Shown here: positions 27,028 to 51,141 of the stretch, piece after piece
Position numbering within the stretch: position 1 is the first letter of the stretch
How the letters are laid out: every line of letters starts with the position of its first letter
NCBI GenBank assembly: GCA_950097015.1
Contig: CATNEN010000001.1
Coordinates: forward strand, 19,902,001-19,966,000
Reading direction: 5' to 3'
DNA: 64,000 bases
Origin: Macrostomum hystrix
Taxonomy: Eukaryota; Animalia; Platyhelminthes
The notes under the pieces: model-generated
Seen by the model: the letters and a program-made list of their open reading frames with translations, nothing else
Told to the model about the DNA's origin: nothing
Databases searched by the model: none
Program-made: the position numbers and the translations under genes

Positions 27028-27429
27028 ATGCTCATATTGTCCCAGTCGTGTCATCTGAATTTATATGTGCTGATTGTCTGATTTGCCAAACTATTATCAA
27101 TTATCAATTGTGTCAATTGTGATACCCCCACTAATACCCGTCCCTTTACAACCGAGAATCTCATATGTTCTGTTTGTTGCTCTCTTATATATTGTTAAGA
27201 TGCTAATGATTGTCAACACTGTGATTATTTCGTTAGTAATTAAATAAATTGACAAATGAAATCATTTGATTATCATCTGATTAAACTGAGATTAAACTAT
27301 TCTCGTTTTCTTAAAAGCCGAAGATACACGAAAAAATCATTCGTGATTATTGACAATTAGCAGAGAAATATACTAAATTTGTCGATGGTAAAAAAGTACA
27401 AGTCACTTTGTCTGAGAATACGTATCTAC

Positions 27430-28040
27430 ATTCGCGAAAATACCATAATATGTAGCCATGCACACTACTTTAAGAACTTTTGCAAAAATACCGCCAACTA
27501 CCTGCGTTTAATAGCATAACAGTATTTTCGCGAAAATACCTTAAGATGTAGCCATGCACACTACTTTAATAACTTTTGCAAAAATACCGCAAACTACCTT
27601 TACTACCTGCGTTTAATAGGATAGCAGTATTTTCGCGAAAATACCATAATATGTAGCCATGCACACTACTTTAAGAACTTTTGCAAAAATACCGCCAACT
27701 ACCTTTGTTTAATAGCATAGCAGTATTTTCGCGAAAATACCTTAAGATATAGCCACGCATATAACCTACTTAATTAATAACTTTTGCAAAAATACCGCCA
27801 ACTACCTGTGTTTAATAGCATAACAGTATTTTCGCGAAAATACCTTAAGATGTAGCCATGCACACTACTTTAATAACTTTTGCAAAAATACCGCAAACTA
27901 CCTTTACTACCTGCGTTTAATAGGATAGCAGTATTTTCGCGAAAATACCATAATATGTAGCCATGCACACTACTTTAAGAACTTTTGCAAAAATACCGCC
28001 AACTACCTTTGTTTAATAGCATAGCAGTATTTTCGCAAAA
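27430..28040. repeat. ~100-bp tandem array with TTTTCGCGAAAA and TTTTGCAAAA palindromes (array 1)
   Basis: About six units of cagtattttcgcgaaaatacc...aacttttgcaaaaataccgc. Confidence 0.93.
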
Positions 28041-28368
28041 ACAGACACTATTTTTCATTTACAAGTATTCAATATAGTACATATTGTCTTTTCGCGAAAA
28101 AACTCATTCGTGAGTTTTGGCAATTTACAGAAATACACTAAATTTGTCTATGGTAAAAAGTCACTTTGTCTGAGAATACGTATCTGCATTTGCGAAAATA
28201 CCATAAGATGTAGTCACGCTACTTTTGCAAAAATACTGCCCTTACCTTCGCGAAAATACTGTATTTACTTTCCATTTAGAACTCTGCTTCCTATTCTAAT
28301 TCTACTTCTGCTAGTGTTAGACGCGCTGCTGTTGCACTCACGACATTGTTGGTTGTGTAGAACTCACG

Positions 28369-28788
28369 ATGAATACGCATCCTGTGGCGCTGTTCGGCTC
28401 GCCGGCCACCGTGGCACTCCTGGCCAGATGCGACATCGCCTGTCTGGCCCCGTTCCTGACTTACCGAGGACGATTGGAGCAGCTAACCTGCCTGCAGCGC
28501 CACTGCCCGACTGCTGAGCTGAACGTCACCCAGCTGCACACCCTGATGAAGAGCCTCCTGGACTGGCTGCTACAACACAAGACAGCTGCGGGCTACGAGA
28601 CCATCCTGGAGGTGACCTGCCTAACAGAGAACGAGGCCTTCGACTTGGCCGAGCTGCTAGGCCTGCTGGAGGACACATGTTTGGAGCTGCAGCACATTCT
28701 ACACGGCCTGGACTACTGGCGCGGCGTACAGCAAAGGGCTAGACTGCGAGAGTTGCTCCGGAGCCGCCGATATCGAATTGAGCAGTAA
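28369..28788 (+). CDS. 139-aa helical protein of unknown function (paralog A1)
   Basis: ATG-initiated, GC3-rich codons, alignable along its length to 33565-33945. Confidence 0.8.
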   Translation: MNTHPVALFGSPATVALLARCDIACLAPFLTYRGRLEQLTCLQRHCPTAELNVTQLHTLMKSLLDWLLQHKTAAGYETILEVTCLTENEAFDLAELLGLLEDTCLELQHILHGLDYWRGVQQRARLRELLRSRRYRIEQ

Positions 28789-29099
28789 CAGCAGCAGCAG
28801 CAGCAGCAGTAGCAGCACTAGTTTTAGGTAGACTTAATACAGCTAATTGTAGTTTCCTGTTCGCCGTTTAATTTATGCCAGCTATTTATTTAACCCAATT
28901 AATTCGCTCAAGCAAAAATACATGAGTGAACCTGTTGCAAGTTGTATTCGCGGCATGAATAATAATAAAATATAATGAAGTCAAGTCATATTTGGTTATT
29001 GATTACCATTAGATATAGTCATCATGAATACTTAAAGTACTTTCGCAAAAATATTGTCTTCTTATTGTCTTCAACCGCCGCATTATCGCCGCATGTCTG

Positions 29100-29402
29100 C
29101 ATTCGCGATAATACCATAAGATGTAGCCATGCACACTACATTAAGAATTTTCGCAAAAATACCGTCAACTACCTTTGTTTAATAGCATAGCAGTATTTTC
29201 GCGAAAATACCAAAGATGTAATCATGCACACTACTTTAAGAACTTTTGCAAAAATACCGCCAACTACCTTTGTTTAATAGCATAGCAGTATTTTCGCGAA
29301 AATACCATAAGATGTAGCCATGCACACTACTTCAAGAACTTTTGCAAAAATACTGCCCTTACCTTTGTTTATAGAGCATATCAGTATTTTCGCGAAAATA
29401 CT
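29100..29402. repeat. ~100-bp palindrome array 2
   Basis: About three units of the same repeat. Confidence 0.9.
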
Positions 29403-29601
29403 ATATATGGAAATAGCTTAGACCCAGTTGACGATGCCTGTCTATGTCTATGTGTCTGACTGCTGCTCTGTACAGGATATGAGCAGTGCTAGGTAAATAT
29501 ATGCGCGCGCGCACGCAAATCGATAATTAAAATTCAGCCACAACGAACACTCTGTCGATTATTCAGCAGGCTAGCCAGCGAACGACTATATTTAAGCTGC
29601 A

Positions 29602-31095
29602 ATGGAAGACAACAACGGACTCCGCTTCTGCCATTTCTGCGGCCAGCAAATCCGCGCCAATATGATGCGAAGACATTTTATAGAGGCGCATAAAGCTGTC
29701 CATGCCGAATTTGACTGGACAGTCCTACCTGTTGGTCAAAGGCCATCGCTATTCGCGTCGGTTAAGGAGCGTGGAAGTGCCGTCTGGAAGATGCTGCAAC
29801 TACAGCGGGCTGGTGTGGATGTCGCTGCCGGTGGACGTGTGCTAGCGTGTCCGCATTGCAACAAAATAACGTCCAACATGTTGCATCATCTATATAGATG
29901 TAAGCGGAATCCGCAGCGTCGCGTCGGTGGCCAACCAGCTCAGCCAGTGGCAGTGGCGGGAGCAGCGGCAATGGGCGAAGTGGTCCAGCTTGAACAACTG
30001 GATCCACTACCAGCTGTGGTCGGCGAGATTGTCGACTATATGCACGAGCGCTACATTGCCCGTCGACTGCCAGCAGCAGAGCAGCCAGCAGCAGAGCAGC
30101 CAGTAGCAGAGCAGCAAGTAGCAGAGCAGCCAGCAGCAGAGCAGCCATCAGCAGAGCAGTCAGCAGCAGAGCAGTCAGCAGCAGAGCAGCCAGCAGAAAC
30201 TATCATCATAGAAGATAGCGCAGCTGAATCAGGCATCATCTATGCAACAAGTACTGACGAGCCTGCTGAACATGTGAGCCAAGCGGACAGCGTGTCAATT
30301 GGATCAGTACGGCATCCAATTTGTACATCTACTCCGCTTAATCACAATGCGATTGAAGCAGCAGCAGAAACAATCCAATCGGATCACTCGCCAGTACCAT
30401 CGCCATCAATGCCAATGTTGCAAATTGAGCCAATCGGATCACCAGCGATGCCTATGTTGCCGATTCCAACTGTCGAGGTGCCGTATTTCGTTCCGGTGCC
30501 GCTACCTGTTTTTATTCCTGTCTGTGCGCCAAGAGTAACAACAGCGACAGTTGGTGTCAGTGCACAAAACGGTGTGACCGATGTTTCAATCGAAGCCAAT
30601 GTCAGCACGCAGTCAGTGTGTATTGGTACATCATCCGGTCACGGTGATGACATTGAAATGGCGCAGATTCTGCTCGACTTGATGCAACCTGCCGCTATGC
30701 AATTTCTGTCTACCAATACGGATTGTGTTGCTGCTGCTGCTGGATCGGATTTCGCTGCCCATTCCGAAGCAAGTCACATCGATGACATGTTTGATGTCGC
30801 AATGGAGATCATCATTGCTGATGTCAACAACGATTCGGATGAACAGTTATCTGATGTGACAGTGCCGCAAGGAGATGCCGATGCCGCAGCAGAATTGGTT
30901 CTGACCGCCGACCTTGACGACGATGTCGCAATGTCAATAAGTGATGTGCAGTCATCGCAATCGACTATACCTGCGACTGATGCTTTGCATGCATCTAGAC
31001 GCTCGTATTGTATATGCACACACAATATATTGACTACGACAGTGTCAAGACACGGCCGATTGATCAAGACGCGACAATGTCTGTGCGGCAATTGA
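29602..31095 (+). CDS. 497-aa double zinc-finger protein with acidic low-complexity body; recombinase-less paralog of 23967-27027
   Basis: CHFC..RRHFIEAH..FDW..AVWK..GVDV..CPHC..HLYRC aligns with the N-terminus of the YR-like protein. AAEQP repeats. C-terminal SRHGRLI parallels TRSGRLI. Confidence 0.82.
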   Translation: MEDNNGLRFCHFCGQQIRANMMRRHFIEAHKAVHAEFDWTVLPVGQRPSLFASVKERGSAVWKMLQLQRAGVDVAAGGRVLACPHCNKITSNMLHHLYRCKRNPQRRVGGQPAQPVAVAGAAAMGEVVQLEQLDPLPAVVGEIVDYMHERYIARRLPAAEQPAAEQPVAEQQVAEQPAAEQPSAEQSAAEQSAAEQPAETIIIEDSAAESGIIYATSTDEPAEHVSQADSVSIGSVRHPICTSTPLNHNAIEAAAETIQSDHSPVPSPSMPMLQIEPIGSPAMPMLPIPTVEVPYFVPVPLPVFIPVCAPRVTTATVGVSAQNGVTDVSIEANVSTQSVCIGTSSGHGDDIEMAQILLDLMQPAAMQFLSTNTDCVAAAAGSDFAAHSEASHIDDMFDVAMEIIIADVNNDSDEQLSDVTVPQGDADAAAELVLTADLDDDVAMSISDVQSSQSTIPATDALHASRRSYCICTHNILTTTVSRHGRLIKTRQCLCGN

Positions 31096-31393
31096 TTTCA
31101 TTCAATTCAATTGGCTCTGCGTGCAACTCGGATTGGGCATCTTTGACCGTCTACTGGCTGATTGGCTGGCTGGCTGGCTTGCTGAATAATCGACTGACTC
31201 ACTTATAATAAATTCAGACTGAACTTGATTTAATCGATTGATTTAATATACGTTGATATAAGAATAAACTAAAAAATATATACTTTTATGCGATTTGATT
31301 CCACTACTGTCTATTTTTATTACATAAATTTTAGTTTTAAGTCTACTTCATTATTCTCAGGTTTTGCGCAATATAAATACAAACATAATATCT

Positions 31394-32680
31394 CAGACTG
31401 ATCGATTACGATTACGTCGGTCTTGTAATAAGTCTCAACGCCAATGTCCATGACATAACCACCAGTCAGTTCATATTATTTTAAATGATAAAATAAATAA
31501 CCAAGATAAGAAGGCGTGTACTATTACCGATTAAACAAATAACAAACACTAAATTATTAAAATATTTATATTTTAAAGCGAATGACCGGGTGCAGAGCAT
31601 GCTGACTGCTCACATTGCCATTAGGCCGCACGTTAGCCATCTGAAAGCATTCAGAAAAAAGCTGAAATCTGACTAACTTGCGGCCAAGTGGCAATGTGTG
31701 AGCAATAGCCAGCTGATATCTTAGCAGCTTCAGTTGAAGGACGCGAAAATACATTATACTGTTCAACCAGTATGTGACATGTCGCAGTATGTGAACCACT
31801 GAACCGTCACACCGAATCACTATACACTACAATACCATAGCAGTCCTGTGTATTTATATTTTGAAACACGGGGATGTCCGGGTGCAGAGCAGGGCTGACT
31901 AATGCTCACATTATCATCGGGCCGTACGTTAGCCAGATGAAAGCTTTCAGAAAAAAACTGAAATCTGGCTAACGTACGGCCTGATGGTAACGATGGCTAA
32001 CGATACTGTCTTCCACAAAAGCCTTCTTACCTTTTTACCACTGGCACAATATGCACAGATCTCAAGTAGTCAACGATCATAGTCGTTTTGACTTAAGAAT
32101 ACGTATGTACTTTCGCGAAAAAAAAGTTGGCAGTGCGCAAAGACTAATTATAGATGAAATCTCTGGCTATATTCGCGAAAATACCATAGATATAGCCGCG
32201 CTACTTAAAAAACTTTTGCAAAAATACTGCATACAATATGAATTATATGCAGCCGTTTTTTTGTCTATGGCCAAAAACGTCTGACTGTATTTTCGAAAGA
32301 AAAAATGTGGATACGAAGAAAAAAAATCGCGAAAAAATCGAGCTGTACCAAGCAGATATGTCTTTGGTAAAATACGCACAATTTAATGCACTACATACCT
32401 ATAGTCTGCACGTTTTAATAGTGCATCTTGGCATATCTAGCAAGACGTAAGCGTATAATAATTTATTCGTTGTTTGTACTTTACTTTTTTAAACGAATCC
32501 GTTTTTATTAATATTTTCTTACATGAGAAACTTGTATAAACTTTACTTGAAATTATATACCAGACTGATCGATTACGATTACGTCGTTATTGTAGTAAGT
32601 CTCATCGCCAATGTACACCACATAACCAACAATCAGTTCATATTATTTTAATGATAAAATAAATAACCAAGATAAGAAGT
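31394..32680 (+). repeat. ~125-bp direct repeats (31394-31515 and 32561-32680) enclosing two hairpin-forming ~100-bp repeats
   Basis: cagactgatcgattacgattacgtcg...aataaccaagataagaag occurs twice. ccgggtgcagagca...ggcc occurs at ~31586 and ~31878. Confidence 0.85.
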
Positions 32681-32767
32681 TATGTATTTTGAGAACTATG
32701 AAACTATTTTAATAACAATTTTAAGCTTATTTTATTTACAAACAATAACAGAATTAATGCAAGATTG

Positions 32768-32908
32768 TCAGGGACTGATTGGGCAGATAGTCAGGGACTG
32801 ATTGGGCAGATAGTCAGCGGCTGATTGGGCAGATAGTCAGCGGCTGATTGGGCAGATAGTCGGACTGATTATAGCACACCAGATAGTCGGACTGATTATA
32901 GCACACCC
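32768..32908 (+). repeat. 23-bp tandem repeat (cagggactgattgggcagatagt) x4 plus a related duplication
   Basis: Direct repeats visible. Confidence 0.9.
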
Positions 32909-32979
32909 GGCTGCGGGATGAAAGATGGGTTTTAGGTTTCATTTAGTTTGTTAGCTCAGATGTTACCATGCATATGTGT

Positions 32980-33276
32980 TCATAAATATTCAAATGAAAG
33001 GAATCGAAATCTACTACTCACATAAGGATCCAGCCCTGCCGCTATGCGGCGGGCCCGGGCCATGCGGACCATGGCCGCCCGGACCCGCCGCATAGCGGCA
33101 GCCATCTCGGCCTCCTTCCCGCGACGTCCCGGCGTCCAGGCCTCCGCTGCCGCCACTGCTGTCGCTGCATCCATCGCTGCTCGCAATGCGCTTTCCAATT
33201 CGGCCGCAGCGGAGGCCAGTACGTGTTCCCGGAACGCCGCGGTGAAGGAGGGAAATTTGTTGCTATTGTTGCTCAT
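32980..33276 (-). CDS. Small Ala/Arg-rich helical protein, probably spliced after codon DPY
   Basis: ATG-initiated GC-rich ORF in an AT-rich context, with a GTGAGT donor at 33021. Downstream exon not identified. Confidence 0.55.
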   Translation of the reverse strand: MSNNSNKFPSFTAAFREHVLASAAAELESALRAAMDAATAVAAAEAWTPGRRGKEAEMAAAMRRVRAAMVRMARARRIAAGLDPYVSSRFRFLSFEYL

Positions 33277-33564
33277 GTCCGTGCTGTGTCGCTCGCTATC
33301 CTGTAGCTTCTGTCCGTATGGCGTTGGTTGTGGGCTGATTTCTTGGCCGAGAAAGATTTCTTGTTCTTAATACCCAGACTGGCCTGTATTCATTTGATTT
33401 GTCTGTGGACTGACTCACCTGTGTTCGATAAAATATACTCTATGGGGGCTTCTTATCGCATTAATATTAATATTAATATATCGCTTCTTATTAAACGATT
33501 AAAGTTTAGAATTTTTTTTAACAAAACTATTTTTTGCTTTACTTGATTTACTAACTGACTGAAC

Positions 33565-33945
33565 ATGTCGTTCATTGCCCATCAGATGCAGTTAGTACAA
33601 ATGTATCTTCAGCCGCGCGTATTTCAACTCTTTCTCAGCTGTCGCATAGATTGCATTGGCCGGTTCATAGCGCATCGAGGGTGCTTCGAGCAGCTACCTA
33701 GTTTGCAACGCGGTGTTCCAAATGCAGAGTACAACGCTAATGAGCTATGTTTATTATTACGGCGCACTCAACAATGGCTGCAAAAGCACCGGTCAGCAGA
33801 AGACTATCAGGCTGTCTTGTCCGTGACTGGTGTAAGAGACGATGAAGCACAAGACATCATCGAAGTGCTAGAGCTTTTAGAGGAAGCCCAAGCTGAACTT
33901 CAGCTCATCATACATGGAGTTCGCTATTGGTACATCGAACAATGA
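33565..33945 (+). CDS. 126-aa helical protein of unknown function (paralog A2)
   Basis: Shares C.I.C...F...RG..EQL..LQR..P.AE.N, WL..H..A..Y...L.VT.....EA.D..E.L.LLE....ELQ.I.HG..YW and terminal IEQ with A1. Confidence 0.8.
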   Translation: MSFIAHQMQLVQMYLQPRVFQLFLSCRIDCIGRFIAHRGCFEQLPSLQRGVPNAEYNANELCLLLRRTQQWLQKHRSAEDYQAVLSVTGVRDDEAQDIIEVLELLEEAQAELQLIIHGVRYWYIEQ

Positions 33946-34458
33946 ATGCTGTAAAATACAGAATTTATATGCAGAATTTTATGTATTATAGTTTACACGT
34001 TTATTTTTGCTCTCGCGACTTTGCAAATCAGACTAATTGTAGAATGGCACGATTATTTGTTCAACCAATGAAATTCTATATATATTTATACTCTATATGT
34101 ATTGGTGAAATTTAATAAAAACCGTATTAATAATTACCGGTTGACTACCTGCACACATCTGTGTTCGCGTATTAATATTTTATTACTGACTGATCTCATC
34201 AGTCGTCTGATTATGATTAATGGTAAACGCGACAATATATTGTCAATAGTGACGGCAAACTCTTATGCTTTGAATATACCACGTGAAGGTGAACGAGAGC
34301 TAGTGTATATAAAAGTACTTTAAAACATTTGCAGGCATCATGAACTGTCGATTTTAAATACTCTGATGTATGAATCAAATACATGAAACTTCTAATTATA
34401 TTAATCAGTTAATTAATTTCATTATAAGCAATGGCAACAGTGCTTAACAAAACAATTG

Positions 34459-34917
34459 CTACATGTCATTCAAATCTGGGTTATTTGCAGCACGATTGGC
34501 ATCGCCGCGCTCTCTTTCAGTGCCAGTGCCGCCATTGTTACTGTTGCTGCTGCTGCTGCTTATAATTGGTGACTGTATATCGGTCACTTGCGCATGCTGC
34601 GGCAGTTGCAATTGGCCGGCTAAATCACGTGTCGGATTGGCGTTCACAATTCCAAATCTCTGATTGTAAATGCGCACGACACCTGGACGATGCAATACGT
34701 ACTGAACACGTTGACGTGAAGGCAGAATAGCAAAATCCGAGTCTGAACTACTATCCGAGCTGTGCCTTCGTCGACGTCGCTCAGTGCCAATCACGACATC
34801 TGTGCTGCTACTGACGGTAGGGCACGAGATCGGTTTGTCGTTGCCAGAGTTGTGATCCTCTCTGTCGATATCTCGATCTCGATCTCCGCCATTGTGCCGC
34901 CCACCCAGTGATGACAT
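34459..34917 (-). CDS. 152-aa mostly disordered protein with basic cluster (RRRRRH) and Ser/Asp tract
   Basis: ATG-initiated GC-richer ORF bounded by AT-rich flanks. No recognisable domain. Confidence 0.55.
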   Translation of the reverse strand: MSSLGGRHNGGDRDRDIDREDHNSGNDKPISCPTVSSSTDVVIGTERRRRRHSSDSSSDSDFAILPSRQRVQYVLHRPGVVRIYNQRFGIVNANPTRDLAGQLQLPQHAQVTDIQSPIISSSSSNSNNGGTGTERERGDANRAANNPDLNDM

Positions 34918-35152
34918 GTTGTAGTTTTTTTTATTTGAAACAATAATTAAGAATCTAAAATGTGTAAATAAGTTACGCCACTTACCTTAGTAAAGTAACC
35001 AACTAAAAACCCTATTGCTAGTCTATGGTAACAAGCTTGCTGATAATCTTATGTGATTGGGAATATGTAATCAATGCAGTTGAAACTTTGGACAATTAAT
35101 GAAGTAAATAAAACAAGTTCAACATTTTAAATACTGCCCCCATTGTCTCGCC

Positions 35153-35833
35153 ATGCCTACATCAACATCATCATCAGGGCCAACTCTAAACGATGCGGAA
35201 AAATCCAACTGTCACGACGATGACGTTGAGCTGAATGAAGAGCCAGGCTATGATGACTACGGGTATGATGAAACATACAATTCAACATACAGTTTTGTAT
35301 TCGGCCTGGCAGACGACCATTTGTTATACGCCGTAGCCGAAGAGGTCGAAGCGGCGATGGCAACCAATTGCTTTGACCCAGCTGATGACGAGCTTTAGTA
35401 TGCAGCAGCTGAAGAGGCGGAGGCGTCAGCAGCAGCGGCAGCGATGGCAGCCAGTAGCTGCTTATTTGACCCAGCTGACGACTGCCTATTGTATGCCGCA
35501 GCTGAAGAGGCAGAGGCGTCAGCAGCAGCGGCAGCGATGGCAGCCAGTAGCTGCTTATTTGACCCAGCTGACGACTGCCTATTGTATGCCGCGGCTGAAG
35601 AGGCAGAGGCGTCAGCAGCAGCGGCAGCGATGGCAGCCAGTAGCTGTTTATTTGATCCAGCTGACGACTGCCTATTGTATGCCGCAGCTGAAGAGGCAGA
35701 GGCGTCAGCAGCAGCGATGACAGCCAGTAGCTGTACATTTGACCCAGCTGACGACTGCCTATTGTATGCCGCAGCTGAAGAGGCGGAAGCGTCAGCAGCA
35801 GTAGCGATTGCAATTGAGGAGGCACAAGTTTGA
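35153..35833 (+). pseudogene. 226-codon acidic tandem-repeat protein (six DDxLLYAxAEExE motifs) with one in-frame TAG at 35396-35398
   Basis: ORFs 35153-35398 and 35444-35833 are in frame. The TAG sits where sister repeats have TTG (Leu). ~93-bp units. Confidence 0.75.
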
Positions 35834-36279
35834 AATGATATTATAAAAAATACATTCACTATGATTAATTACAGTGATATTATAAAGCTTCTGATTATCA
35901 ATACTATTTGATATCTACATATGTGTTGTGTTGTAAATGATTGAAAATACACTAATCTTTTCGCGAAAATACCATCACCAACAATCATCAGCACTATGTT
36001 AAGCATTATTGTTTGTATGTTAGTACTCAAAGCAATTTCGCAGTTTGTATTTGTTTTAGAACATGTTCTTTCGCAAAAATATGTTCATCATCGTATCGTT
36101 AGTATTTTTGCAAAAAAACTGTCATTATTTTTCATTCACAGGTATTCAATACAATATATAGATAATATATAGTCTTTTCGCGAAAAAAATGCACTCATGA
36201 CTCTTGGCAATTTGCAGAAATACTAAATATGTCTATGGTTAAAAAAGTACAATATACTTAGTCTAATAATATGCATGTA

Positions 36280-37262
36280 TTTTCGCGAAAATACCTTAAG
36301 ATATAGCCACGCACACAACTTCAAGAACTTTTGCAAAAATACCGCCAACTACCTTTGTTTAATAGCATAGCAGTATTTTCGCGAAAATACCATAAGATAT
36401 AGCCACGCATATAACCTACATTAATAACTTTTGCAAAAATACCGCCAACTACCTTTGTTTAATAGCATAGCAGTCTTTTCGCGAAAATACCTTAAGATAT
36501 AGCCACGCATATAACCTAATTTAATAACTTATGCAAAAATACCGCCAACTACCTTTGTTTAATAGCATAGCAGTATTTTCGCGAAAATACCTTAAGATAT
36601 AGCCACGCATATAACCTAATTTAATAACTTATGCAAAAATACCGCCAACTACCTTTGTTTAATAGCATAGCAGTATTTTCGCGAAAATACCTTAAGATGT
36701 AGCCATGCACACTACTTTAATAACTTTTGCAAAAATACCGCAAACTACCTTTACTACCTGCGTTTAATAGCATAGCAGTCTTTTCGCGAAAATACCATAA
36801 GATATAGCCACGCATATAACCTACATTAATAACTTTTGCAAAAATACCGCCAACTACCTTTGTTTAATAGCATAGCAGTATTTACATGAAAATACCTTAA
36901 GATATAACCACGCATATAACCTAATTTAATAACTTATGCAAAAATACCGCAAACTACCTTTACTACCTGCGTTTAATAGCATAGCAGTATTTTCGCGAAA
37001 ATACCTTAACATATAGCCACGCATATAACCTACTTTAATAACTTTTGCAAAAATACCGCCAACTACCTTTGTTTAATAGCATAGCAGTCTTTTCGCGAAA
37101 ATACCTTAAGATGTAGCCATGCACACTACTTTAATAACTTTTCCAGGTCACAGCCGCAAACTACCTTTACTACCTGCGTTTAATAGGATAGCAGTCTTTT
37201 CGCGAAAATACCTTAAGATGTAGCCATTCACACGACTTTAATAACTTTTGCAAAAATACCGC
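36280..37262. repeat. ~100-bp palindrome array 3 (about ten units)
   Basis: TTTTCGCGAAAA near 36280, 36376, 36476, 36576, 36676, 36781, 36990, 37090 and 37197. Confidence 0.95.
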
Positions 37263-37645
37263 TATTTACTTTCGGATAAAAGTCGTTATTTTATTTTCGC
37301 GATAACACCTGTAAATGAATTTTATTAATTAATACTTTGACACTTTGCATATACCTTCGTTTGAATGCGTAATACTATATATAGTAATAAGAAATATGAT
37401 TTTTTTGCAACAGAAGTAGCAATTACCTACTTCACAACAATAAAAGCTCAAAACTGAGCATATAAATTGATTTTATTTGTATGACTAATTATAAAATTGC
37501 ATACAAAAACAGTATGAAACAGTAAAAAATATAAAAAAAACAGCTGAAAGACTGACTGAAGGACCGAGTAAAAATATAGTCGATAAAATAGCAGCATGCA
37601 GGCAGTTTGGTGTAAAAAAACCTGCTAACAGCACCGTCTTGTCGC

Positions 37646-40361
37646 TCATACTCGCCGGTCCGGGTGATCGCCAAACACATTGCGTATTGGGTGGCATTGT
37701 CCATCGCATTGGTAGTCGGCACTGAGGGAATGACCAATGAAGATGGCAACTACCGGACGCTTGTGCCCATCAGGTGTCGGTTCTAATCGGCGCTGAAAGT
37801 CCATCGAATACGCACTGACCGGAGCATGCCCAGCAAGCACTAACAGTCGATTGAGCCAAGAGACGTGTCGAATAGCCTTGTATTTAGCATTGACTTCAAA
37901 AGTGTCTCCATTGACCAAACGAAGTAGTGTGCACATGACTTCAGATGTGTCATCAAACAGTTGCGGGCGTAGCTCGTCAATAAACATGGCAGTGTGTATA
38001 GTCTCGCAGAGCTTGTCAAACATAAACGTGTTAGACCGCTTCTGCACCTGGATATTCAGCACTTTCGTAGAACCGAGATGGCTTTGCACAGAGTGGGTCT
38101 TCCCAACGCCAGACGGGCCGTATAGATAGACGACACCAGTTGGCAATTGCAACGCGCTGCACACAGCCTTTACAGTTGGGCACACGTTGGTGGCGGCGGC
38201 GATCAACCGGGGAACATGAGCGACGGCGGCATCAAATACTTGAACAGCAGTAGCAGCGGAAGCAGCAACATCAGCAGCAGCAGCAGAGACCTGTTGTGTT
38301 GTTAGGTAGGTTCGCATACAATTAATTAATTAATTGTCCAAAAGTAATAATTATTTGAATTAAAACAACAGCAAAAATTCAATGATCAATACTCGTACGT
38401 GTGCTAAAAAATGTCATGTATTATAATATTTTGCATACCTCCAGCTGAGTAGGCAAGGTCGTCCTCGCATAGTCGGCTGTTGCAGCATCATCAGCAGCGG
38501 CGGCGGCGGCAGCGGCAGTAGGGCGACAGTTTTGGCAACCAGCTAGCACCTCTGTTGCTATTACGCGTTTCATCTGAGTCACCTTAAAGTAATCGCTGAG
38601 CTCTTGTCTGACACGAAAGTGTTCGAACATGAAGCCACTATCTAGCAAAGGCTCAGTAGATGACGTCTCATGAGCAGCAACCCAGCAAAAGGCCTTGGTC
38701 AGCAAGCTGCACTCTTGAGTAGAAACGCGGAAAAGAGCTGGAAACTCGTCCGTACTGGTAACTAGCTTAATTGCACTTGACGCACTGCGTACACCAGACA
38801 CTGTCATTCTACACATTGTAGGATGCAGGTAGGCCGAAGCTTCCGCAGATTCCATCAAAAGGGCATGCAGTCCGCAGTAAACAGTGTAACCATCTTCTGG
38901 TTGGCGCAGGTTCAGGAACATCAGCAAACCATTGGGATGATTCGGAGCTCCTAAACATTCACGGATTGACATGTTGTATTTCTGCTGACGACGCGCTCGG
39001 ATTTCTTCGCTGGTCAGCATGTCAACCTGAATACATGATGTTGCGCCGATGGCAAACTGTGCACATGGAGCTACCAATTCATCTTCTAGAAACGCCTTGA
39101 ATTTTTCCACATCGCTCGAGATGAATGCAATCTCTATAAGATGTAGCGTCCTTCTAGTCATAAGAACCGACCTGCCCTCTGCTGTTAAAGAGGCGTAGTC
39201 GGTAATTGGAGCTCGAGGACATAGCCGTAGAAGTGGTGATGTCGAACGACACAACGCATATTCATCGGCTATCGGAGCAAATGCCACGCCACCAACTTCT
39301 TGCTGCTGCCGTTCACGCCGTTGTATCTGCTGCCGCAGCGGCTGCCGCCACTGCTGCTGCTGCGGCTGTTGCTGCGGTTGTTGCTCTCGCTGTTGATGCT
39401 GCTGCTGCTGCTGCGATTGCTGCAGTCGTCCCGACTGTTGCGCTTTTGGTTGAGAAGCGTCGACATACGCTGGAGAGAATACAGCGCGAACTGGTTCATC
39501 AGCATCGGATGTTGTCCCATTCTCGATGACAGACATTGCCGGTGTAGAGCGAGGCGCATAATCTGGCGAAGTCGGACAGGCACCAAGTGCGGCACTATTT
39601 TTAGGAATAGTCGACTCGCCATTAACGCGCAATAATTCTGCCACCTCTGTTTTGTACTTATCATCGACTAGCTGCGATGACAAGGCTGAACTATTAGAGG
39701 CCGTCAAAACAGGGGCAGTATTAGACTCTACATTGTCTGTATTGTTCGTCCACTCGTCCACAATCTCCAGCTGTACGTCGTCTGCTAGCAAGTCGTCCGC
39801 TGAGTCATCTTCAGATGATAGCACTTTAGGCGTGGACTCTATGCGATCAGCATGGTCGCCGGCGCCACAAATTGGTTGGGCAACAATAACCAGAGGCTGT
39901 CGCATGGCTACTAGAGATCCAACGCCAGTGTCTTCAGCATCAGACGACGATGAATTGCTAGACGAAGCATCCAAATCGACAACTGTACGCGTCCGCTTGC
40001 GTAGAGTCGATCGGGCATATCGACGCTTCCGAATTGCACTCGATGGGACAGTCTGCTTCGGCTGCTGCTGCTTCGGCTGCTGCTGCTGCTGCTGCTGTTT
40101 CGACTGCTGCTGCTGCTGTATTACTGCAAGGCGGGGAACAGTGAAGGCAGCCGATGCCCGACCAGCCGTTCCTGCCATTGCTGTAAATGATGCCGATGAT
40201 GCTTGCACACTCGGTCTAGATGCTGCGCCAGTAGGACGATCGGTTGACTGCTGAGATCTAAAGTAATCCACGATCATAGTCTGGCGTAGACCATTAGCAT
40301 CCGGTGTAGCAATGCTGGCATCCACACGAGCCTTCTTTCCACGGCCACGAAATGCTGACAT
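37646..40361 (-). CDS. Rep-like protein, ~855 aa: PIP box, disordered N-terminus, degenerate HUH-like domain, SF3 helicase (exons 40361-38439 and 38290-37646)
   Basis: Phase-0 intron 38438-38291 (GTATGC...CTAAC...CAG) joins two ORFs in frame. Walker A YLYGPSGVGKT, Walker B MFIDEL, B' EVNAKYK, atypical motif C LVLAGH, Arg-finger-like FQRRL. Confidence 0.8.
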
Positions 40362-40830
40362 TTCAAAATTCAAGTCGAGGCGTAGGAATTAACTCGTAAT
40401 TACTCGGTCGGTCAGTCAGTCGGTCACAAAGTAGATGTTAAGCGCGCTCAGTCTTACATAGGTCACTTTTGCGACTGTACTCAACTGTAGTTCTAGGTTT
40501 GACTACAGACAAAACTTTTTTTTCGCGAAAATTCACTCGTGTGTATTGCAATCCCCAATTCGCAAATACTAATAGATAAAATTTCTATGGCTATTTCGCG
40601 AAAAAACCATTACAAGTATATAGACTAGCCATGTTAATTCAATTACTTTCGCAGTATACTTTACTACTTCAGGTGCAATCGGCCCTACTATAAGTAATAT
40701 TGCAGTAGTAAGTAAACATTAATAATAATGGGGATCCACACAAAAAGTGTGGATTCCAATATAAAAAAACAGATTCCTAGTAAAAATATTTTTTCATTTC
40801 TAGTATAATGTTGCCCATTTTTTTTTAAAT

Positions 40831-40913
40831 AAAAAAATGCGTTGGGTGAATGGGATTCGAACCCGAGCCACTTGTACTAGCGACAATGCATTAGACCTGC
40901 ATGCCAGTTCACT
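40831..40913 (-). ncRNA. tRNA-like Pol III cassette, right copy 1
   Basis: Minus strand reads tataaata...gtgaac-TGGCATGCAGGTCTAATGC...GGGTTCGAATCCC-attcac...T7. Confidence 0.55.
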
Positions 40914-41099
40914 AACAATTAAAGTGTGTGTTGTCTGGCTATTTATATTGCTTTTCTTTTCTTAACTGGCGTATTCGAGCAAAAGTACGTTAATAATAAT
41001 GGGGATCCACAAATAGTGGGGATTCGAATATAAAAAAATAGATTTCTAGTAAAGATTTATTTTCATTGATAGTAAAATGTTAGCTGTTTTTTTAATAAC

Positions 41100-41182
41100 A
41101 AAAAAGCGTAAGGCTGACCGGGATTCGAACCCGAGCCACTGGTATTAGAGAGAAATGCCTTAGACCTGCACGCCAGATCACT
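41100..41182 (-). ncRNA. tRNA-like Pol III cassette, right copy 2 (tandem duplicate, ~270-bp unit)
   Basis: Minus strand reads tataaata...gtgatc-TGGCGTGCAGGTCTAAGGC...GGGTTCGAATCCC-ggtca...T-run. Confidence 0.55.
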
Positions 41183-41649
41183 AACAATCAAATAGTGTGT
41201 TATCTGGCTATTTATATTTATTTTCTTTCGCATGTTCGAGTTTTAATGACGTTTGTCTGCAAATGGTGAAATCTTGACCACTAATACAATTTTTTTTCTA
41301 ACAGACTGATAATTTTTATTCAGCGAATATAGAGAGTAGTTCAGGAACGTTTTGCAAAAATACTACCCTTACCTTTGTTTTGGAAACATATCAGTATTTT
41401 TGATTATATAAATAAACTTTTCGCGAAAATACCAGCATTTGAGTCTATTCACAGCCAAGTCAGTTTTCGAATCGACATCCATCACATATATGTACGGATA
41501 TGTGATTCAGGCAGCCGATGCTGCTTGCCCACTCGGTCTATACGTATAAACTAGAGTTTACGGACTTAGAGAATTTTATCATGTCAGTGATAAAATTTTC
41601 GACCGTCCCCAGAGCTTAGTTGGTGTGGCTGGTGGAGTAAATGCAGGTA

Positions 41650-42045
41650 TTATATATATACTCTAAAGAAAGGTGCGCGAGCTGTTTTTTCGCAACTTGA
41701 CTTCGTCGTCGTCGTCGGCATATGGGGGCTAGTATATAGCCGGGCTGGCTAAACCCCGGGCGATTCGATTCTATTTTTAGCCTACGGCGCACCTTTCTTA
41801 AGAGTATATATATACAAGCTGACTCGTGTGTATTTAAATGGCAGCCTATTGAAGTCTATGGGGCACGCAAGCCAGTATATACTCTTAAGAAAGGTGCGCC
41901 TTAGGCTAAAAATAGAAACACCATGCATTTTCGGTCATCTATTATAGTAACTAGTCGTCATCAAGCCCGATCTAGATATAATCTCCGTCATATTGCCTCC
42001 AGCGAAAATATACAGCGCGCACCTTTCTTTAGAGTATATACTAAC
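41650..42045. repeat. Nested imperfect palindrome with four alternating copies of TATATACTCTWAAGAAAGGTGCGC
   Basis: Forward ~41655, reverse ~41788, forward ~41876, reverse ~42017. The inner ~43-bp arms (41769-41811 and 41875-41917) are near-perfect inverted repeats. Confidence 0.9.
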
Positions 42046-42089
42046 TGGCTCCCTCTATCCCGCCCCAATCTCACCACACTATTTAAGCC

Positions 42090-42225
42090 TTCGAATCCCA
42101 TTCACCCAACGCATTTTTTTATTTAAAAAAAATGGGCAACATTATACTAGAAATGAAAAAATATTTTTACTAGGAATCTGTTTTTTTATATTGGAATCCA
42201 CACTTTTTGTGTGGATCCCCATTAT
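42090..42225 (+). repeat. Near-identical inverted copy of ~40725-40861 (3' part of the tRNA-like cassette and its flank)
   Basis: ttcgaatcccattcacccaacgc...gtggatccccattat is the reverse complement of the 40.7-40.86 kb segment. Confidence 0.9.
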
Positions 42226-43278
42226 ATGCAAGAAACCTCGTAATAACCCCTTAATAACCGGCCGAGTAGAAGCAATAACTCACCTTTCTTCAACATGCTG
42301 CGGCTGGGCAGTGGCTTGGGCCTCCAGGATGGGCGTAATTGGCCGGCTAGTCATTAACATATTGACTGCGTAACGATTCAATGTAGGTCGACAGCGAATA
42401 AAAGCCAAAATGGCACTCAGAGCAATTAGTTGTGGAAGATAGCGGCTTGAGTTATTGGGGCATCAAGTGTTTGTTTTTATAGCACCTAAGTTTAGGGGTA
42501 AAGTGGCGGGAGCGCCAGCCAATAGGAAGACAGTTGGGAGTGTGGGAAATTCCAGTATAGGGGGACCCTAGTGACAGTTTAGTTGTTGGGGCCCTGACCT
42601 TTTCGGTGAGGAGACACCTCGGCCGGCAACAGCATCACAAGCGGCCTGAGCAGCGGTTTCCCCAGCTGCGACCAGCTGCAGCGCCGATTGGACCGCGCGC
42701 AACGGCTAGGCAACCGGCCCGGCGAGCATTTTCGGGCACGGCCAGCCGGAAACACCTGGAGCGCGCGGCAAATCAGAGGCTACCAATGCCCGGCAACGGT
42801 ATCGGTGAGGACGCGAACGGGCCAACCAACCTGGAACCACCTGGTGAGAGCACGGCCGGACCCCTCGGACTCAAGGAAGAACGGCCGGGGCCCCCAGGAT
42901 TGCGCAACCGCGACCAAGCCGGGCAGGGAAAGATGGACACAGCTGCGACCACCTGGAGAAGAAGGGGAGCCGGGACTGAGCACACCCCTGGGCATCGAGA
43001 ACAATTTCGCCGCGACTGGAATGCGCACCCACCCCCCATAGGACGCTATACCGTAATCACTAGGGGCGCCGACCATTCTATACTCTCGCACTAATCTATT
43101 TATAGTATCCGTACGTATGTACGCATTAGGATCTCTTCTCTAGCGGAATTCTTCTTAGGGTTCTGTACAGTATGTTGTAGTCAATTTTTATTTTTTTATC
43201 CCCTTGATTCTCGAGACACCCCGCTACTACTGTCAGTAGGCACGTAAGTGTCTTACGTGAAAGTGAGCGAAGGTGGAG

Positions 43279-45548
43279 TGATGTGGAGTGTGCTGCGGGA
43301 ATCGAGTGGGAGTGTGAGCCAGCATAATTTTTCAAATTTTTAAGTACCTAATAATTGCGACCCTCATAGCAGCTGGCCGCAAACACGATCATTAATCTTA
43401 GGGCCGGGTTTGGGGCGGCGGTGAATTAAGTAGCCGTCGAATCCCCTCTCCCTGGATCTGTCTAGACCCCTGTAGGAATGACTGATCGCGGCCGCAGCTT
43501 TATTGTATGAATAGTTTAGGTCATAATTCCCCTCCAAACCGCGATCAGATATTGGGAATCACTCGGGCATTATGAGTGATCATTAATTCTTCATGTCCCC
43601 ACTTCTTTACAGTATTCGAGCCCAGCTCGACTTTATGACCTCCCTCCTTTAGATACATGTAAATGTCACTGTAGGCAGGTCGGCGCCTGCGCTTCCCATT
43701 GTCCTGGTGGAGTAACAATCATTGGCCGACTGCCGACGGCTGTTCGAGCAGAACATCTGTCGTTTCCCGCCGTCGGTTCATTGGGTAATCGGGGCGGCCA
43801 TCGCCGCTTCGATTCCCCGTTGACAGGCTGGCGCGAATGTGGGTTGCTTTGATGGATGTCGGGGTTGGCGTGCTGCAGGACTATTTAAGAAAGCGCGCTG
43901 CGCTGCCTCTAGGACAACCTTTCCGGGAGACCTACCTTTCCTCTCCTTTTCCCGGACCTATTTCCTTGCCGGGCCGGACTCCCACCGGACCCAGAGCACT
44001 ATTCCGGACCCACGTAGGGCTTAGACCCTTGAGCCTTGAGCTCCGAGCAGATAGTACAGGCCAATTGCCTGTTTCCATTCCCTAAGCGCAAGCCACCTCT
44101 TTAGGTGAGCTCTAAATTGAGCCTCTGAGCTCCCAGTGTGTTGGCCCCTGCCAACTCGCAGAAGTTTCCTTTCTCTGCCTTACTGTATTGCCCATCCTTT
44201 CTCCCCGAGAACAACGGGACTGCAGCACGCGGCCAAACGAGATTCAGCTAAGTAATCCGCGCAGCGGTTTGTTATTGTTAATCCTAAGGGACAATTTTAC
44301 TTTTAGTTAGGCGGCACTTAGTGGGAGGGAAGTTAGGGAAGTTTCCAGCCTAATAAACCATCTAATCTAAAGCACCTTTAACTTATTGGGCTACTTTTAA
44401 AACCAACTTAACTCTTTTACTATGTCTCTCTTTCGCTTTTATTTTATCGTTAGACAGCCCTCTATCATGAGTGGCTAATCGCCTAGGGGGGCGGGTTCTG
44501 GTGATGCCGAGCCGAAGGCTGCGGCAGGAAGGCAACTGTAAGCGCGCATAAGAGTAATAAGGAGCTAGGGGTTCGCGAGCAAAATGCGGAGTGTAGGACG
44601 TGCATTTCTTCCTAGGAGGTCGGGGGAATCCTTGGCGGGCTTTCCTTCTTCCTCTCCGGCGGGTTCAAGGTGTACGTTCGAACTCCCTTTCCAATGGAGT
44701 TTTCCCCTACTCCCCTTTCGCGACTGCCGCCACGGGAGCGAGAGTGATGATCTAATAATCTTGCGCTTGCGTAACCACTCAGCCAGTGTTCTGTCTAATC
44801 TCTCCTGCCTCTGATTTCCTCATCTCACACAGATTCGGATTTGTCAGTTACCTAATGTGTAGGCTGCAGTCTAATGTAAGGAATGTGCCTGATGTTTCAT
44901 GAGTAGGATTCCGGCTATGGATTTTCATTCGAGTTCTGAGTACCACCTTTCTAGACCCCTGTAGCGCGAATTCAGGAATCCCCTTTTGAGGCGTGTCTCG
45001 ATCCATTCTGGGGCTCTCACCCCAGTCTAAAACGGAAGTTGCAGAATGCCCTATTTTTCGGCTTGTCTAGATCTGCGTGATAAACTAGGAGCTGTGTACT
45101 CTGGGGACCCAAGTTCCCAAATGTCTGCGGTGGCAACGTAGGCGCATTGGGTGGTGGCGCTACCTGAGATCATTTTCCGCTTTGCCAATAGCCTTTCCGC
45201 ATTTCTGTGACAAGAGCCTGGGCCGTTTCGACCACCGCTACCAAGGTTAGGAGTCAGTTACTTACATGCTACTGATGGCAGTAGACTAGTTAGCCCTGCC
45301 CTGTCCGATTCCGGGCAGTCCGACCCTCTTCTTAGACTTTTAGCCGGTTTCGAGCATTGCTTGGGGTAGGCACGGCTGTCACGCCTGTGGCCTATGGGAC
45401 GAGTGGGACTGGCCAGCCTGAGGCCGATAGGACCACTCCCTGCATCCGCTGAACCTCCCTTCATCTCATCTCTCTCTCCGCGAAATCTCGCGTGTAGCTA
45501 AGCGGTCATTAAGTCGACTCTGTCGCCCGCTCTAGGAATCTAATCTCA
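43279..45548. mobile_element. LTR family B, second diverged copy
   Basis: TGATGTGGAG...TCTCA, colinear with 18124-20431. Flanks ggag/tgag form a TSD with one mismatch. Confidence 0.8.
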
Positions 45549-45564
45549 TGAGAGCAGGTCAGCG

Positions 45565-46579
45565 CTTGTAAAAGGCCCACCCATTTTAGTGGGGGTAATT
45601 GGAATCCGGGGAACGAACACAGACTCTCCTCTGCCAGATCCAGTCATTATCGTGGCCTCAATCACGTGTGGGAAGACCCGCCTGACTATCAGTCTGGTGC
45701 CGTTACACAGCCTTGGCGCATTCAGGTTGCGGAGGAGCATAATTGGTGCCCCAACTTTCAGCTGCAAGTTGTGCGATGGAGTTCCAGGAGGATCTAGAGA
45801 GTTCAGAAACTCAACAGGATACTCCACAGCGGTGTCATCAGTCAACGTTGTATCAATTGACTTGTAAGTGAAAACTGCACCTGGCAACTCCTGAAGCAGT
45901 TGGTAGTTAATTTCGTTGGCGGCATCATTTCTAGGACACAGAATTGCCCTCTCTGACAGCCAGTCAACGCCAGCCTCTGGAGAGAAATATCGACCGGAGA
46001 GCCCTGCGCACTGGGACGCCACCGCACTCACCGCACTCAGTCTCAGTGCTGCTTGGGGGCCAGTAGACAGTCTAGGGGTTTGGGCTGTGTACATTCACGG
46101 CTTGAAATACAATGTACAGTCTGGGGCTTCGGCGCCCGGGGAAGGGAGGGGGTGGCTGTAATAAAATTTGGCCCGCAGAGTGCCGGAGGGGAGTTGGGGT
46201 GGCTGTCCTCGGAAAACAAAAAGTGACTCACTTTGAGATGATGCAGCTTTGCTCTGGATTGAGTAGAGATGTTCAAAATTGACAGCATTTTTGGAAAACA
46301 TGTAAAGTGTAAGTGGATCACATTTGGAGAAAATCTGACAAAGTGGGGCGACGATATGTCGAATTGAGTGATTTTTTGACGATTTTTGAGCAGTTTTTTG
46401 CACTTTTGAGCAGGAAGGAAATGATTTTTCGGGAATTTGAGTAGCCTATTGCACTCAGCGTAGGTGGTTTTAGGTATGTGCAAAGTTTGGTGCGATTTGG
46501 TTGAGCGGTTTCGGCGTCTATAAGGACAAAAGGTTGCACACACACACACACACAGAGTTTTCACTTTTATAGATATAGA
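45565..46579 (-). mobile_element. Internally deleted Helitron containing a PIF1 helicase fragment (~45565-45990)
   Basis: A|TCTATATCTATAAAAG 5' end at 46579 with (TG)n. 'WLSERAILCPRN..YPVEFLNSL..LKVGAPIMLLRNLNAPRLCNGTRL..VFVPRI' is Helitron-type PIF1. Confidence 0.88.
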
Positions 46580-46903
46580 TACGGCGCCCACCTGTCATAC
46601 GACCACGCTGAATTCACCTCCACTGCAGAAGCTGGCTTGTCCCACTTGAAGTGCAAGTTCTTTGTGCATTTTTCCTCTCCAACAACTTTCCTCCATGCAG
46701 AAATTGTAGCTCTTCCTTGATATGTATTTCCCATTGCAGAAAGTCAAAAGAGCCCTCATGTCCTCTCATGTTCCTCAATGGCATAGGGTAAAAATCCAGG
46801 ATACACTTGCATTCCTATGACACCGCTCCACCAGCTGGGCGTTTCGGCTGGGATATGCTCGTAGGGGACATGTTTGCATGCAATTTAAAAAGCGTATACG
46901 ATC

Positions 46904-47542
46904 TTACGGGCAATCGATCATTTCAACTTCGTCAGTTCGTTGTCTCATGAATCGTATCCTCGCCTCCTCTAGACGGGCTTGTCTGGCAGCCTCCGACTCG
47001 TTCGCTCGCCGGTCAGCAGCACGTTGCTTATCCTCATCCAGACGGGCTTGTCTGGCAGCCTCCGACTCGTTCGCTCGCCGGTCCGCAGCACGTTGCATTT
47101 CCTCATCTAGACGGGCCTGTCGGGCAGCCTCCGACTCGTTCGCTCGACGGTCAGCGGCACGCTGCAAATCCTCCTCTTGACGGGCCTGTCGGGCAGCCTC
47201 CGACTCGTTCGCTCGACGGTCAGCGGCACGCTGCAAATCCTCCTCTTGACGGGCCTGTCGGGCAGCCTCCGACTCGTTCGCTCGACGGTCAGCGGCACGC
47301 TGCAAATCCTCCTCTTGACGAGCCTGTCGGGCAGCCTCCGACTCGATCGCTCGACGGTCAGCAGTGCGTTTCCTTTCCTCCTCCAGTCGTGCTTGTCGGG
47401 CAACACAAGATTCGGCCTCCCGGTTTTTCCGCATTGATTGACGCTGGGCTTCCATGCGCTCTTCCTCCTGCTGCTGGCTCTCATTTCTGCGACGCTGCTT
47501 CGCTTCGCGACTCTTCTGTGCTGTGCTCTTCCGCTTTGCCAT
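46904..47542 (-). pseudogene. Helitron RepHel N-terminal repeat region (20-aa units ARQARQEEDLQRAADRRANES), truncated
   Basis: Charged 60-bp repeats typical of animal Helitron RepHel N-termini. Lies downstream of a Helitron-like 5' end at 49840 (TCATATAACTAAAG plus (TCTG)n). Confidence 0.65.
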
Positions 47543-48094
47543 GGTATAAATAATTGAAGTAAATTGAAAAAATGAAAACTAAACTGATGAAATGTGAGTG
47601 GAATGTGGGAGTGATTGAAGTGAGAGAGAGAGAGTTGGCAGTATTTGGTAGAAGAGAGTGCCTATTATATAACCCGCTGGTTAAGCCATGTACATTTAGA
47701 AGTGTACATTTCGAGGCTTTAGCGCACGCATTGCACATTATGTAAAGTAGGTCAGCGGGCTACTGGAGAAAATTGGCCACCTCTCTACACTTCACACCTC
47801 TCCACACCTCCTCGTCCAGGGGCTAAGAAATCCAACCAGCCCTCCCTTCTCTGCACAAGATACAAAATCAGTCAGCTCATCATCAAAAGTCATCATCATC
47901 ACCCACAGACATCTTCCAACATCACCCGCATACACAATGCAAAATCACCCACCGACACACTGCAACATCAACCACAGACATCTAGCAACATCACCCACAT
48001 ACACCTTGCAATATCACTCACAGACACCTTGCAACGTCACCCACAGACTCACTGCACATCAACCACAGACATCACAGACAACCAGCCAACATTT

Positions 48095-49840: not shown

Positions 49841-51141
49841 CTCAGTCTCGCTGTTGGTTGTGTACATTTATTTCCAATTTGTCTCCAGAGTGCAGGCTTC
49901 AAATTCAATCAGCTAGGGGTTGCTGCGCAATTTGACGATGCAATTCTAATTCAGGCGCAGTGAGTAAAATTCTCAGTAGGCCAAGATAGTTTGACCTTTG
50001 AAAAAATAGGTCAAAAATCATGTTTTTCGAATATTTAATCCCCTTAGCAATAAAGTTAAGCTTAATAATAATACGTTAGTTAAGCTAAATCATTATTTTC
50101 CCAATATTTGGCATCTTTTGGTGAAGAAATGGTGAAAATCGGTTGAGCCGTTCGGGAGAAAATCAATTACAAGCAAGTAACCAGCCATTTCATTTTTAGT
50201 ATATAAGATTTGCCCCCCTTCGGGGAGCCGAAATCTTTTAAATTTGTCTAGTATATACTTCTTGGGAGCTGTATTTTCAGCTTTTTTAAAGATACAATGA
50301 TCCCGCAGTTGAAAATGATCCCCTAGTTGGCAATGATCCCCCATTTGAAGATGAGTCCTCATTGATGATGATCACCCAGTTGACAATGATCCCCCAGTTA
50401 ACAAATGAGAGAGCTTGTATCATGGCTAAACCAGAGTCTGAATCATGGCTAACCCAGAGTTTGAATCATGGCAAAACCAGAGTTTGAATCATGGCTAAAC
50501 CAGAGTTTGAATCATGGCTAAACCAGAGTCTGAATTATGGCTAAACCAGCGTTTGAATTGTGGCAAAAAAGAGTTTAAATCATGGCTAAACCAGAGTCTG
50601 CATCATAGCCAACCAGAGTTTGAATCATGGCAAATTTTTTTTGTCATTGAATTGAAATCTCGACATTTTCAGTTTGTTATATCATAACGTCAGTGATATA
50701 TATTTGTATGATAAATATTTTGCTTAATATTCATTAAAATGTTGTTCTTCTCAATTTTCTACAAAAGAAGTTAATATAAAAATTCAACTGGGCAACATTG
50801 TCAACTGGGCATCATCCTCAATGGGGAGTTATCATCAAATGGGGGATCATTGTCAACTGGGGTATCATTGTCAACTGGGGGATCATTGTCAACTGGGGGA
50901 TCATCATTAACTGGGGGATCATTGTCAACTTGGGGAACATTGTCAACTGGGGATCATTGTCAACTGGAGGATTATTGTCAACTGAAGGAACATGTTAACT
51001 GGGGATCATCATCAATGGGGAGTCATCATCAACTGGGGGATCAATGTAGAATTAAAAAGCTGTAAATTCAGCTGCTTAAAAGTATATAATAGACGAATTA
51101 AAAATATTTTTGCTCCCCGAAGGGGGGGCAAAACTTGCTAG
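49841..51141. mobile_element. Rearranged pieces of the satellite-bearing Helitron: inverted core and 3' end (49841-50400) plus forward 3' half (50418-51141)
   Basis: Reverse complement of the 3.7-4.05 kb core, short 18-bp and 23-bp arrays, hairpin plus CTAG at 51141. Confidence 0.8.

Follow-up and report, generated by a model that had tools for sequence, protein, structure and literature searches.

Elements that replicate from a CRESS-type SF3 helicase raise the question of what stands in front of that helicase when the nicking residues are gone. An HUH domain normally precedes it, according to the available text of PMC6668415, and this creates a strong prior against any other assignment. In a window of 64,000 nucleotides of Macrostomum hystrix DNA, a Rep-like gene had been predicted to carry an HUH endonuclease fold stripped of its catalytic residues. 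We asked whether the domain is indeed of this fold, and what the protein may do in the element that encodes it.

The Rep-like gene is probably spliced and lacks nicking residues

The gene lies on the minus strand, with the following parts:

38439-40361 (-), exon 1 of the Rep-like gene (641 aa), an open frame
38547-39176 (-), folded non-catalytic domain, aa 396-605, delimited by motif positions
38291-38438 (-), intron of 148 nt, GT..AG, phase 0, from the sequence and a spliced joint in contigs
37646-38290 (-), exon 2 of the Rep-like gene (214 aa), SF3 helicase by motifs and profile
38096-38119 (-), Walker A, exon 2
37973-37987 (-), Walker B, exon 2
37826-37843 (-), motif C region without Asn, exon 2
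37784-37798 (-), arginine-finger-like motif, exon 2

Exon 1 encodes about 395 aa of low complexity and then the folded domain, which is followed by a CxxC and a poly-Ala linker, within a frame that runs from a Met at 40361 to its end at 38421. In the raw DNA the P-loop/helicase ORF is separate (37646-38329) and is joined to the domain only via splicing, so that the original placement of the domain upstream of SF3 holds for one protein but not for one ORF. The spliced product has 641 + 214 = 855 residues. The joint was present in two of the four sequencing runs, in one X4 contig and one X6 contig, which come from two studies with two organism codes, and the unspliced form was found in X1. Splicing of the Rep-like gene is the likely reading of this joint, although other readings are possible, since runs X1, X4, X5 and X6 are not recorded as RNA, the supporting side measures 24 letters in X4 (46 in X6) and likeness was set to 80.

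The four motifs on which the prediction was built, LHLIEIAF (39146-39123, aa 406-413), QFAIGATS (39059-39036), GLLMFLNL (38930-38907) and VSGVRSASSAIKLVTSTDEFP (38801-38739), share a single open frame on the minus strand (aa 406-541), at the positions and within the interval originally given. The predicted absence of the His pair, Tyr and Lys is likewise borne out, as none of them is present in the window domain. A His-x-His pair is absent at GLL from the window, from its copies in the runs and from the homolog P0001 described below; no YxxK occurs at IKLV in the window, nor at the aligned place in P0001. Because the protein is intact and conserved among copies without nicking residues, it is unlikely to initiate rolling-circle replication.

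Besides the motifs listed above, exon 2 has a basic motif. Its Pfam matches fell below cut-off (RNA_helicase, E 0.0065; DUF5906, E 0.028). A profile of CRESS Reps (103 ORFs gathered, 54 kept) scored 19.4 bits, a value reached by 0/300 and 0/500 shuffles, and the best pairwise match was also a CRESS Rep (23.9 bits); a D5-type profile of nine rows, one of them bad, gave 5.7 bits, and the large T and E1 helicases stood outside this profile comparison. Exon 2 is an SF3 helicase, which we provisionally classify as CRESS-like, in keeping with the prediction of an SF3 domain in the same protein. Motif C of SF3 helicases is expected to carry an Asn, and with a motif C that lacks it the helicase activity of exon 2 is a predicted one.

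Searches for an HUH fold remain at chance level

The structure-prediction check proposed with the original claim gave two models of low confidence (pLDDT 31.2 and 33.9), and fold searches returned no match. No match to the folded domain was obtained in Pfam, PHROG, NCBIfam or PDB sequences, and an HUH HMM search gave no hit. Using a position-specific HUH profile of 43 viral rows, from which 10 plasmid rows and one truncated row were excluded and in which long insertions were allowed, the window domain scored z 0.5 (45/150 shuffles as good), and z 0.7 (33/150) with the next domain added. As a control, L003, a natural plasmid Rep that lacks the His and Tyr residues, reached z 7.6 (0/60) on the same profile without plasmid rows. 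In local alignments to HUH sequences, shuffles did as well in 272/300 cases for the window, 131/300 for P0001 and 250/300 for the pair, and hhalign returned P 0.27-0.65. A same-length test over 70 columns was somewhat closer, with 19/200 shuffles as good for the window and 9/200 (z 2.0) for P0001. The resemblance to HUH motifs on which the prediction relied was thus equalled by chance, both on the 43-row profile and in local alignment.

The one favorable outcome came from a fixed register. With the catalytic columns masked, the window domain reached z 5.0 on the HUH profile in a hand-picked register and P0001 z 3.4 (6/5000), scores that are inflated by selection by eye and by taking the best of 45 shifts. 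In unguided alignment, VRSASSAIKLVTSTDEF (the VRSASSAIKLV stretch) also fell on the motif III region. The register as predicted requires an insertion of about 30 residues ahead of motif II, where the aligner favors LHALL over GLL. The proposed HUH fold therefore did not rise above chance in any search-type test, and the homolog points instead to the exonuclease of family-B polymerases.

Two phytoplasma plasmid Reps, L003:13-1189 and L004:101-1201, align without an HUH His pair or a Tyr in motif III. By their sequences, they are natural nuclease-dead HUH-SF3 Reps, a subject on which a literature search found nothing.

A distant homolog resembles the exonuclease of family-B polymerases

Among 1,835,955,588 representatives, P0001 was the only protein to pass E 0.001 (E 4.3e-5), and additional homolog searches gave no match beyond it. 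It has 125 aa, derives from a metagenome contig of 1,995 nt and is 30% identical to the window domain over 115 columns. Two stretches of the domain are defined by this comparison:

38598-38939 (-), stretch homologous to P0001 (30% identity, 115 columns)
38607-38810 (-), likely PolB-exonuclease-like core, aa 518-585, in a register transferred from P0001 and inferred for the window

A query of the ESM Atlas with P0001 returned PF03104 (DNA_pol_B_exo1) in 25 of 30 hits, with a score of 0.93, 177/256 features and a recognition of 2778. The same query with the window domain returned DUF3626 at low recognition and not PolB, and a Pfam search of P0001 gave no hit. For profile tests, 240 exonuclease segments were collected by motif scans, of which 124 were kept; the subset profiles drew on the 86 of sufficient length. 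Since these tests were chosen following the Atlas lead, the two lines of evidence are not independent.

On a gapless exonuclease block of 37 columns P0001 scored z 6.3, with none of 1000 shuffles as good and 108 Rep decoys lower. Shuffles did as well in 2/500 cases on the exonuclease HMM and in 3/300 local alignments. A 54-row profile of the cellular/giant-virus type gave 0/200 in all four settings (z 3.8-6.6), and with a 32-row T4-like profile 4-19/200 shuffles were as good, or 244/300 in local alignment. Compared head-to-head over 70 columns, P0001 fitted the exonuclease at z 6.8 (0/200) versus z 2.0 (9/200) for HUH, and three negative profiles fell below 0; the raw exonuclease score was 12.4, and none of 90 real decoys exceeded -0.2. 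Not every test agreed: a first exonuclease profile of 10 rows was not significant, and hhalign assigned a probability of about 1.2-1.5%.

The window domain by itself behaved differently from its homolog. On exonuclease profiles, shuffles as good numbered 435/1000, 305/500 and 41/200, and 12 settings gave z -0.4 to 1.6, in a background of up to z 3.6 for a negative-control profile on this domain and up to z 4.0 for decoys. The best gapless exonuclease placement of the window nevertheless coincides with the register transferred from P0001, at z 4.2, and the residues in which it differs from P0001 fit the exonuclease at only 274/5000. As neither fold is matched above chance by the window domain itself, the exonuclease assignment is transitive and passes through one sequence, P0001. 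The stretch that matches the exonuclease is also the part best shared by the two proteins, and it follows the predicted motif III. At fixed registers, the HUH and exonuclease scores are similar.

In the transferred register, the core likely consists of two strands, a further strand, a long helix, a degenerate ExoII and a helix, and takes in the segment predicted to be motif III. The catalytic carboxylates of family-B polymerase exonucleases lie in ExoI, ExoII and ExoIII. In the window protein the ExoII positions are substituted, and the alignment does not extend to ExoIII. A polymerization domain had no Pfam or NCBIfam match, nor is there room for one, since the folded domain is followed by the poly-Ala linker and then by the helicase.

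We propose, with a probability of about 0.5, that the domain is a truncated and catalytically dead remnant of a PolB exonuclease fused to a CRESS-type SF3 helicase. The remnant would begin near ExoI and end shortly after ExoII, ahead of ExoIII and the polymerase domain. The predicted motif III would then correspond to two strands of the exonuclease core, and the conserved ECSLL helix and GF..EH.R stretch to the helix and the ExoII region, with substituted catalytic positions. Under either assignment, HUH or PolB exonuclease, a nickase is absent.

Alternative explanations for the domain

A gene without catalytic residues might simply be a decayed relic whose active relatives retain them. Dead copies do exist, as illustrated by one divergent X1 copy with a stop and a net frameshift, and near-identical copies could stem from one recent amplification. 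The window copy itself is intact, as predicted: its 641- and 214-codon frames are open and the splice is in frame. In the main contigs of X1, X4, X5 (where depth is low) and X6, the domain differs from the window at three sites, all synonymous, and the motif residues are identical in near-identical copies from all four runs, so the absence of HUH and Tyr is constant among copies. The X1 contig has a depth of 844, compared with 74-100 in five unrelated contigs of the same table, which hints at many copies but does not give a copy number. Since P0001, a single distant homolog, also lacks both HUH and YxxK at 30% identity, the window copy is not simply decayed, and we hold a relic to be highly improbable.

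The two remaining alternatives concern the fold. The domain may be an HUH fold from which the His pair, Tyr and Lys have disappeared and which was turned to origin binding, in parallel with large T and E1 but independently of them. The CRESS-type helicase downstream, the unguided placement of VRSASSAIKLVTSTDEF on the motif III region, the masked hand-picked register and the weak same-length scores (19/200 and 9/200) are what would be expected of such a domain, and the phytoplasma plasmids show that Reps without His and Tyr occur naturally. We consider it doubtful: every search-type test was at noise, whereas the equally His/Tyr-less L003 scored z 7.6; the register wants its insertion of about 30 residues, with LHALL taken for motif II; the fixed-register score was inflated by selection; and the stretch best conserved with P0001 follows the predicted motif III and, in P0001, fits the exonuclease gaplessly. 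Alternatively, both resemblances could be coincidences of an amphipathic pattern in some other alpha/beta fold, serving as an element-specific module for DNA binding or oligomerization. This would agree with the similar fixed-register scores and with the lack of any match to the window domain by itself in Pfam, PHROGs, NCBIfam, PDB sequences and our own profiles; some PLV SF3 proteins likewise have upstream regions without a detectable homolog, in the available part of PMC4642659. It is rendered improbable by the exonuclease match of P0001, which exceeded all 90 decoys and appeared in two kinds of method.

A mobile-element-like host stretch surrounds the gene

The features around the gene are as follows:

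22500-42370, element, approximate extent, with continuous cover in X1 and X4 (30/30 bins)
24675-27027 (+), spliced gene with an intron at 25515-25626, exon 2 tyrosine-recombinase-like by eye, joined form in one X5 contig
41655-42040, a 24-nt motif present four times, as two inverted pairs (41655+, 41787-, 41876+, 42017-), 0-1 mismatches

The gene lies in a host stretch of about 20 kb that is mobile-element-like, with approximate ends. Near the presumed ends, at 22502-22513 and 42358-42369, there is a 12-nt direct repeat with one mismatch, possibly an attachment core, or due to chance.

Integration had been ascribed to a tyrosine recombinase. The recombinase-like motif order of the spliced gene is seen by eye only, and four profile tests were not significant (shuffles as good in 160/500, 70/300, 236/300 and 15/300 cases), so the label remains putative.

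With up to 4 mismatches allowed, the window has no further copy of the 24-nt motif. The first inverted pair folds at z -4.8 (0/200 shuffles), and the inverted motifs are a candidate origin or recombination site. The origins of CRESS and pCRESS Reps have a nonanucleotide that caps a stem-loop. In 22401-42400 none was carried by a strong hairpin: five matches to the nonamer pattern NANTATTAC had a longest perfect stem of 5 bp and the sole match to TAGTATTAC had a stem of 2 bp. A hairpin at 41727-41741 with TAGTATATA occupies the center of the first inverted 24-nt pair and loosely recalls the CRESS nonamer.

In Pfam, the 10 ORFs scanned from the element gave no match to a double jelly-roll capsid, a minor capsid or an A32-like ATPase, a search that divergent or spliced genes could escape.

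Proposed mode of replication

The likely exonuclease remnant may act as a DNA- or partner-binding module and not as an enzyme, while the helicase ring would open the double-stranded DNA of the element. Loading may take place at the four inverted 24-nt motifs, which lie 1.3 kb upstream of the gene. Given that no nickase, primase or polymerase domain was detected, host enzymes would carry out priming and synthesis. The separate recombinase-like gene may excise and reinsert the element. The outcome would resemble that of large T and E1, a helicase-only initiator, reached via a domain swap instead of HUH decay. Of the original prediction, an intact Rep-like protein without nicking residues is supported, a shift to replication of double-stranded DNA by the host replisome would be its putative outcome, and the HUH fold stayed at chance level in searches.

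Comparison with known systems

CRESS and pCRESS Reps, which the available text of PMC6668415 describes as HUH-SF3 fusions, share with the window protein a CRESS-scoring SF3 helicase and the order of N-terminal domain, then helicase. The window protein differs in having no HUH, no YxxK and no nuclease-domain profile match, in its 855 aa with a long low-complexity N-terminus and an intron, and in its context, about 20 kb integrated in the host, where strong hairpins carry no nonamer. Polyomavirus large T and papillomavirus E1 combine an inactivated HUH origin-binding domain with SF3, as outlined in the accessible parts of PMC6668415 and PMC13595969. These proteins and ours have in common a helicase with a non-catalytic N-terminal partner and a predicted reliance on host replication enzymes; in our case the HUH fold is at chance in profile searches, the helicase is CRESS-like by profile and no capsid gene was recognized.

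The Tlr1-like helicases of PLVs, Tlr1 and transpovirons consist of an inactivated protein-primed PolB and an SF1 helicase, in elements of which the PLVs commonly have a tyrosine recombinase, as far as PMC5499653 covers them in its available sections. Under the exonuclease assignment, they would share with the window protein a dead family-B polymerase remnant N-terminal to a helicase in an integrating element. They differ in that they keep the polymerization domain, with no exonuclease detected (same source, same sections), whereas the window remnant would be the exonuclease part, of cellular/giant-virus type by profile, and its helicase is SF3. The TVpol-SF3, AEP-SF3 and HelPrimPolB proteins of PLVs and virophages also join a replication-enzyme domain to SF3, and their SF3 replicases undergo frequent domain swapping and are associated with tyrosine recombinases, in the accessible text of PMC4642659, PMC7544198 and 10.64898/2026.10.13.758929. 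In those proteins, as far as that text goes, the N-terminal domains are PolA-like or primase with a catalytic role and the helicases are D5-type; moreover, no capsid or packaging ATPase gene was recognized in the window element. A dead PolB exonuclease joined to an SF3 helicase was not found in the literature searched, and supplements of the PLV papers and repeat databases could hold such elements. Within the available text of these sources, the nearest published cases are a dead polymerase domain with an SF1 helicase (PMC5499653) and the PolA- or primase-SF3 fusions.

Two escapes from the HUH nickase are known: it may be inactivated, as in large T and E1, or a protein-primed polymerase may take its place (PMC13595969). 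An intact, spliced, nickase-free CRESS-type SF3 protein in an integrated element represents a further escape, whether its partner is an HUH or an exonuclease domain. Should the partner prove to be a dead proofreading domain, the protein would add a domain architecture and suggest a non-catalytic use of this fold in replication initiation. We tentatively suggest a novel class of multi-copy, intron-bearing eukaryotic elements of about 20 kb, with a CRESS-type SF3 initiator in which the nickase was swapped for a dead PolB exonuclease, inverted 24-nt loading repeats and a highly divergent tyrosine recombinase, which would represent a second independent route away from the rolling-circle Rep and towards a helicase-only initiator.

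Other features of the element and its surroundings

Two pairs of paralogs occur in the element, 23898-24632 with 29596-31095 (34% identity), which have zinc-finger-like Cys/His motifs, and 28321-28788 with 33559-33945 (40%). Repeats of about 80% identity with the look of a tRNA-like B-box lie near both element ends, at 23298-23451 (+), 40821-40950 (-), 41070-41218 (-) and 42090-42225, the last being a 99% inverted copy of 40725-40861; ARAGORN and Rfam made no call on them. Related AT-rich units, each about 95-105 nt long and with abundant TTTTCGCGAAAA, form arrays at 27430-28060, 29100-29400 and 36290-37260 that are specific to the spacers of the element. A strong GC-rich hairpin at 33040-33098 falls within a short ORF and gave sub-threshold Rfam rows. 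Outside the element, 45546-47600 contains a Pif1 helicase fragment (E 2.8e-19) and a repeat-rich ORF and is Helitron-like, and 4180-14700 and 50200-56600 hold large arrays of 23-nt and shorter satellites and an inverted-repeat element.
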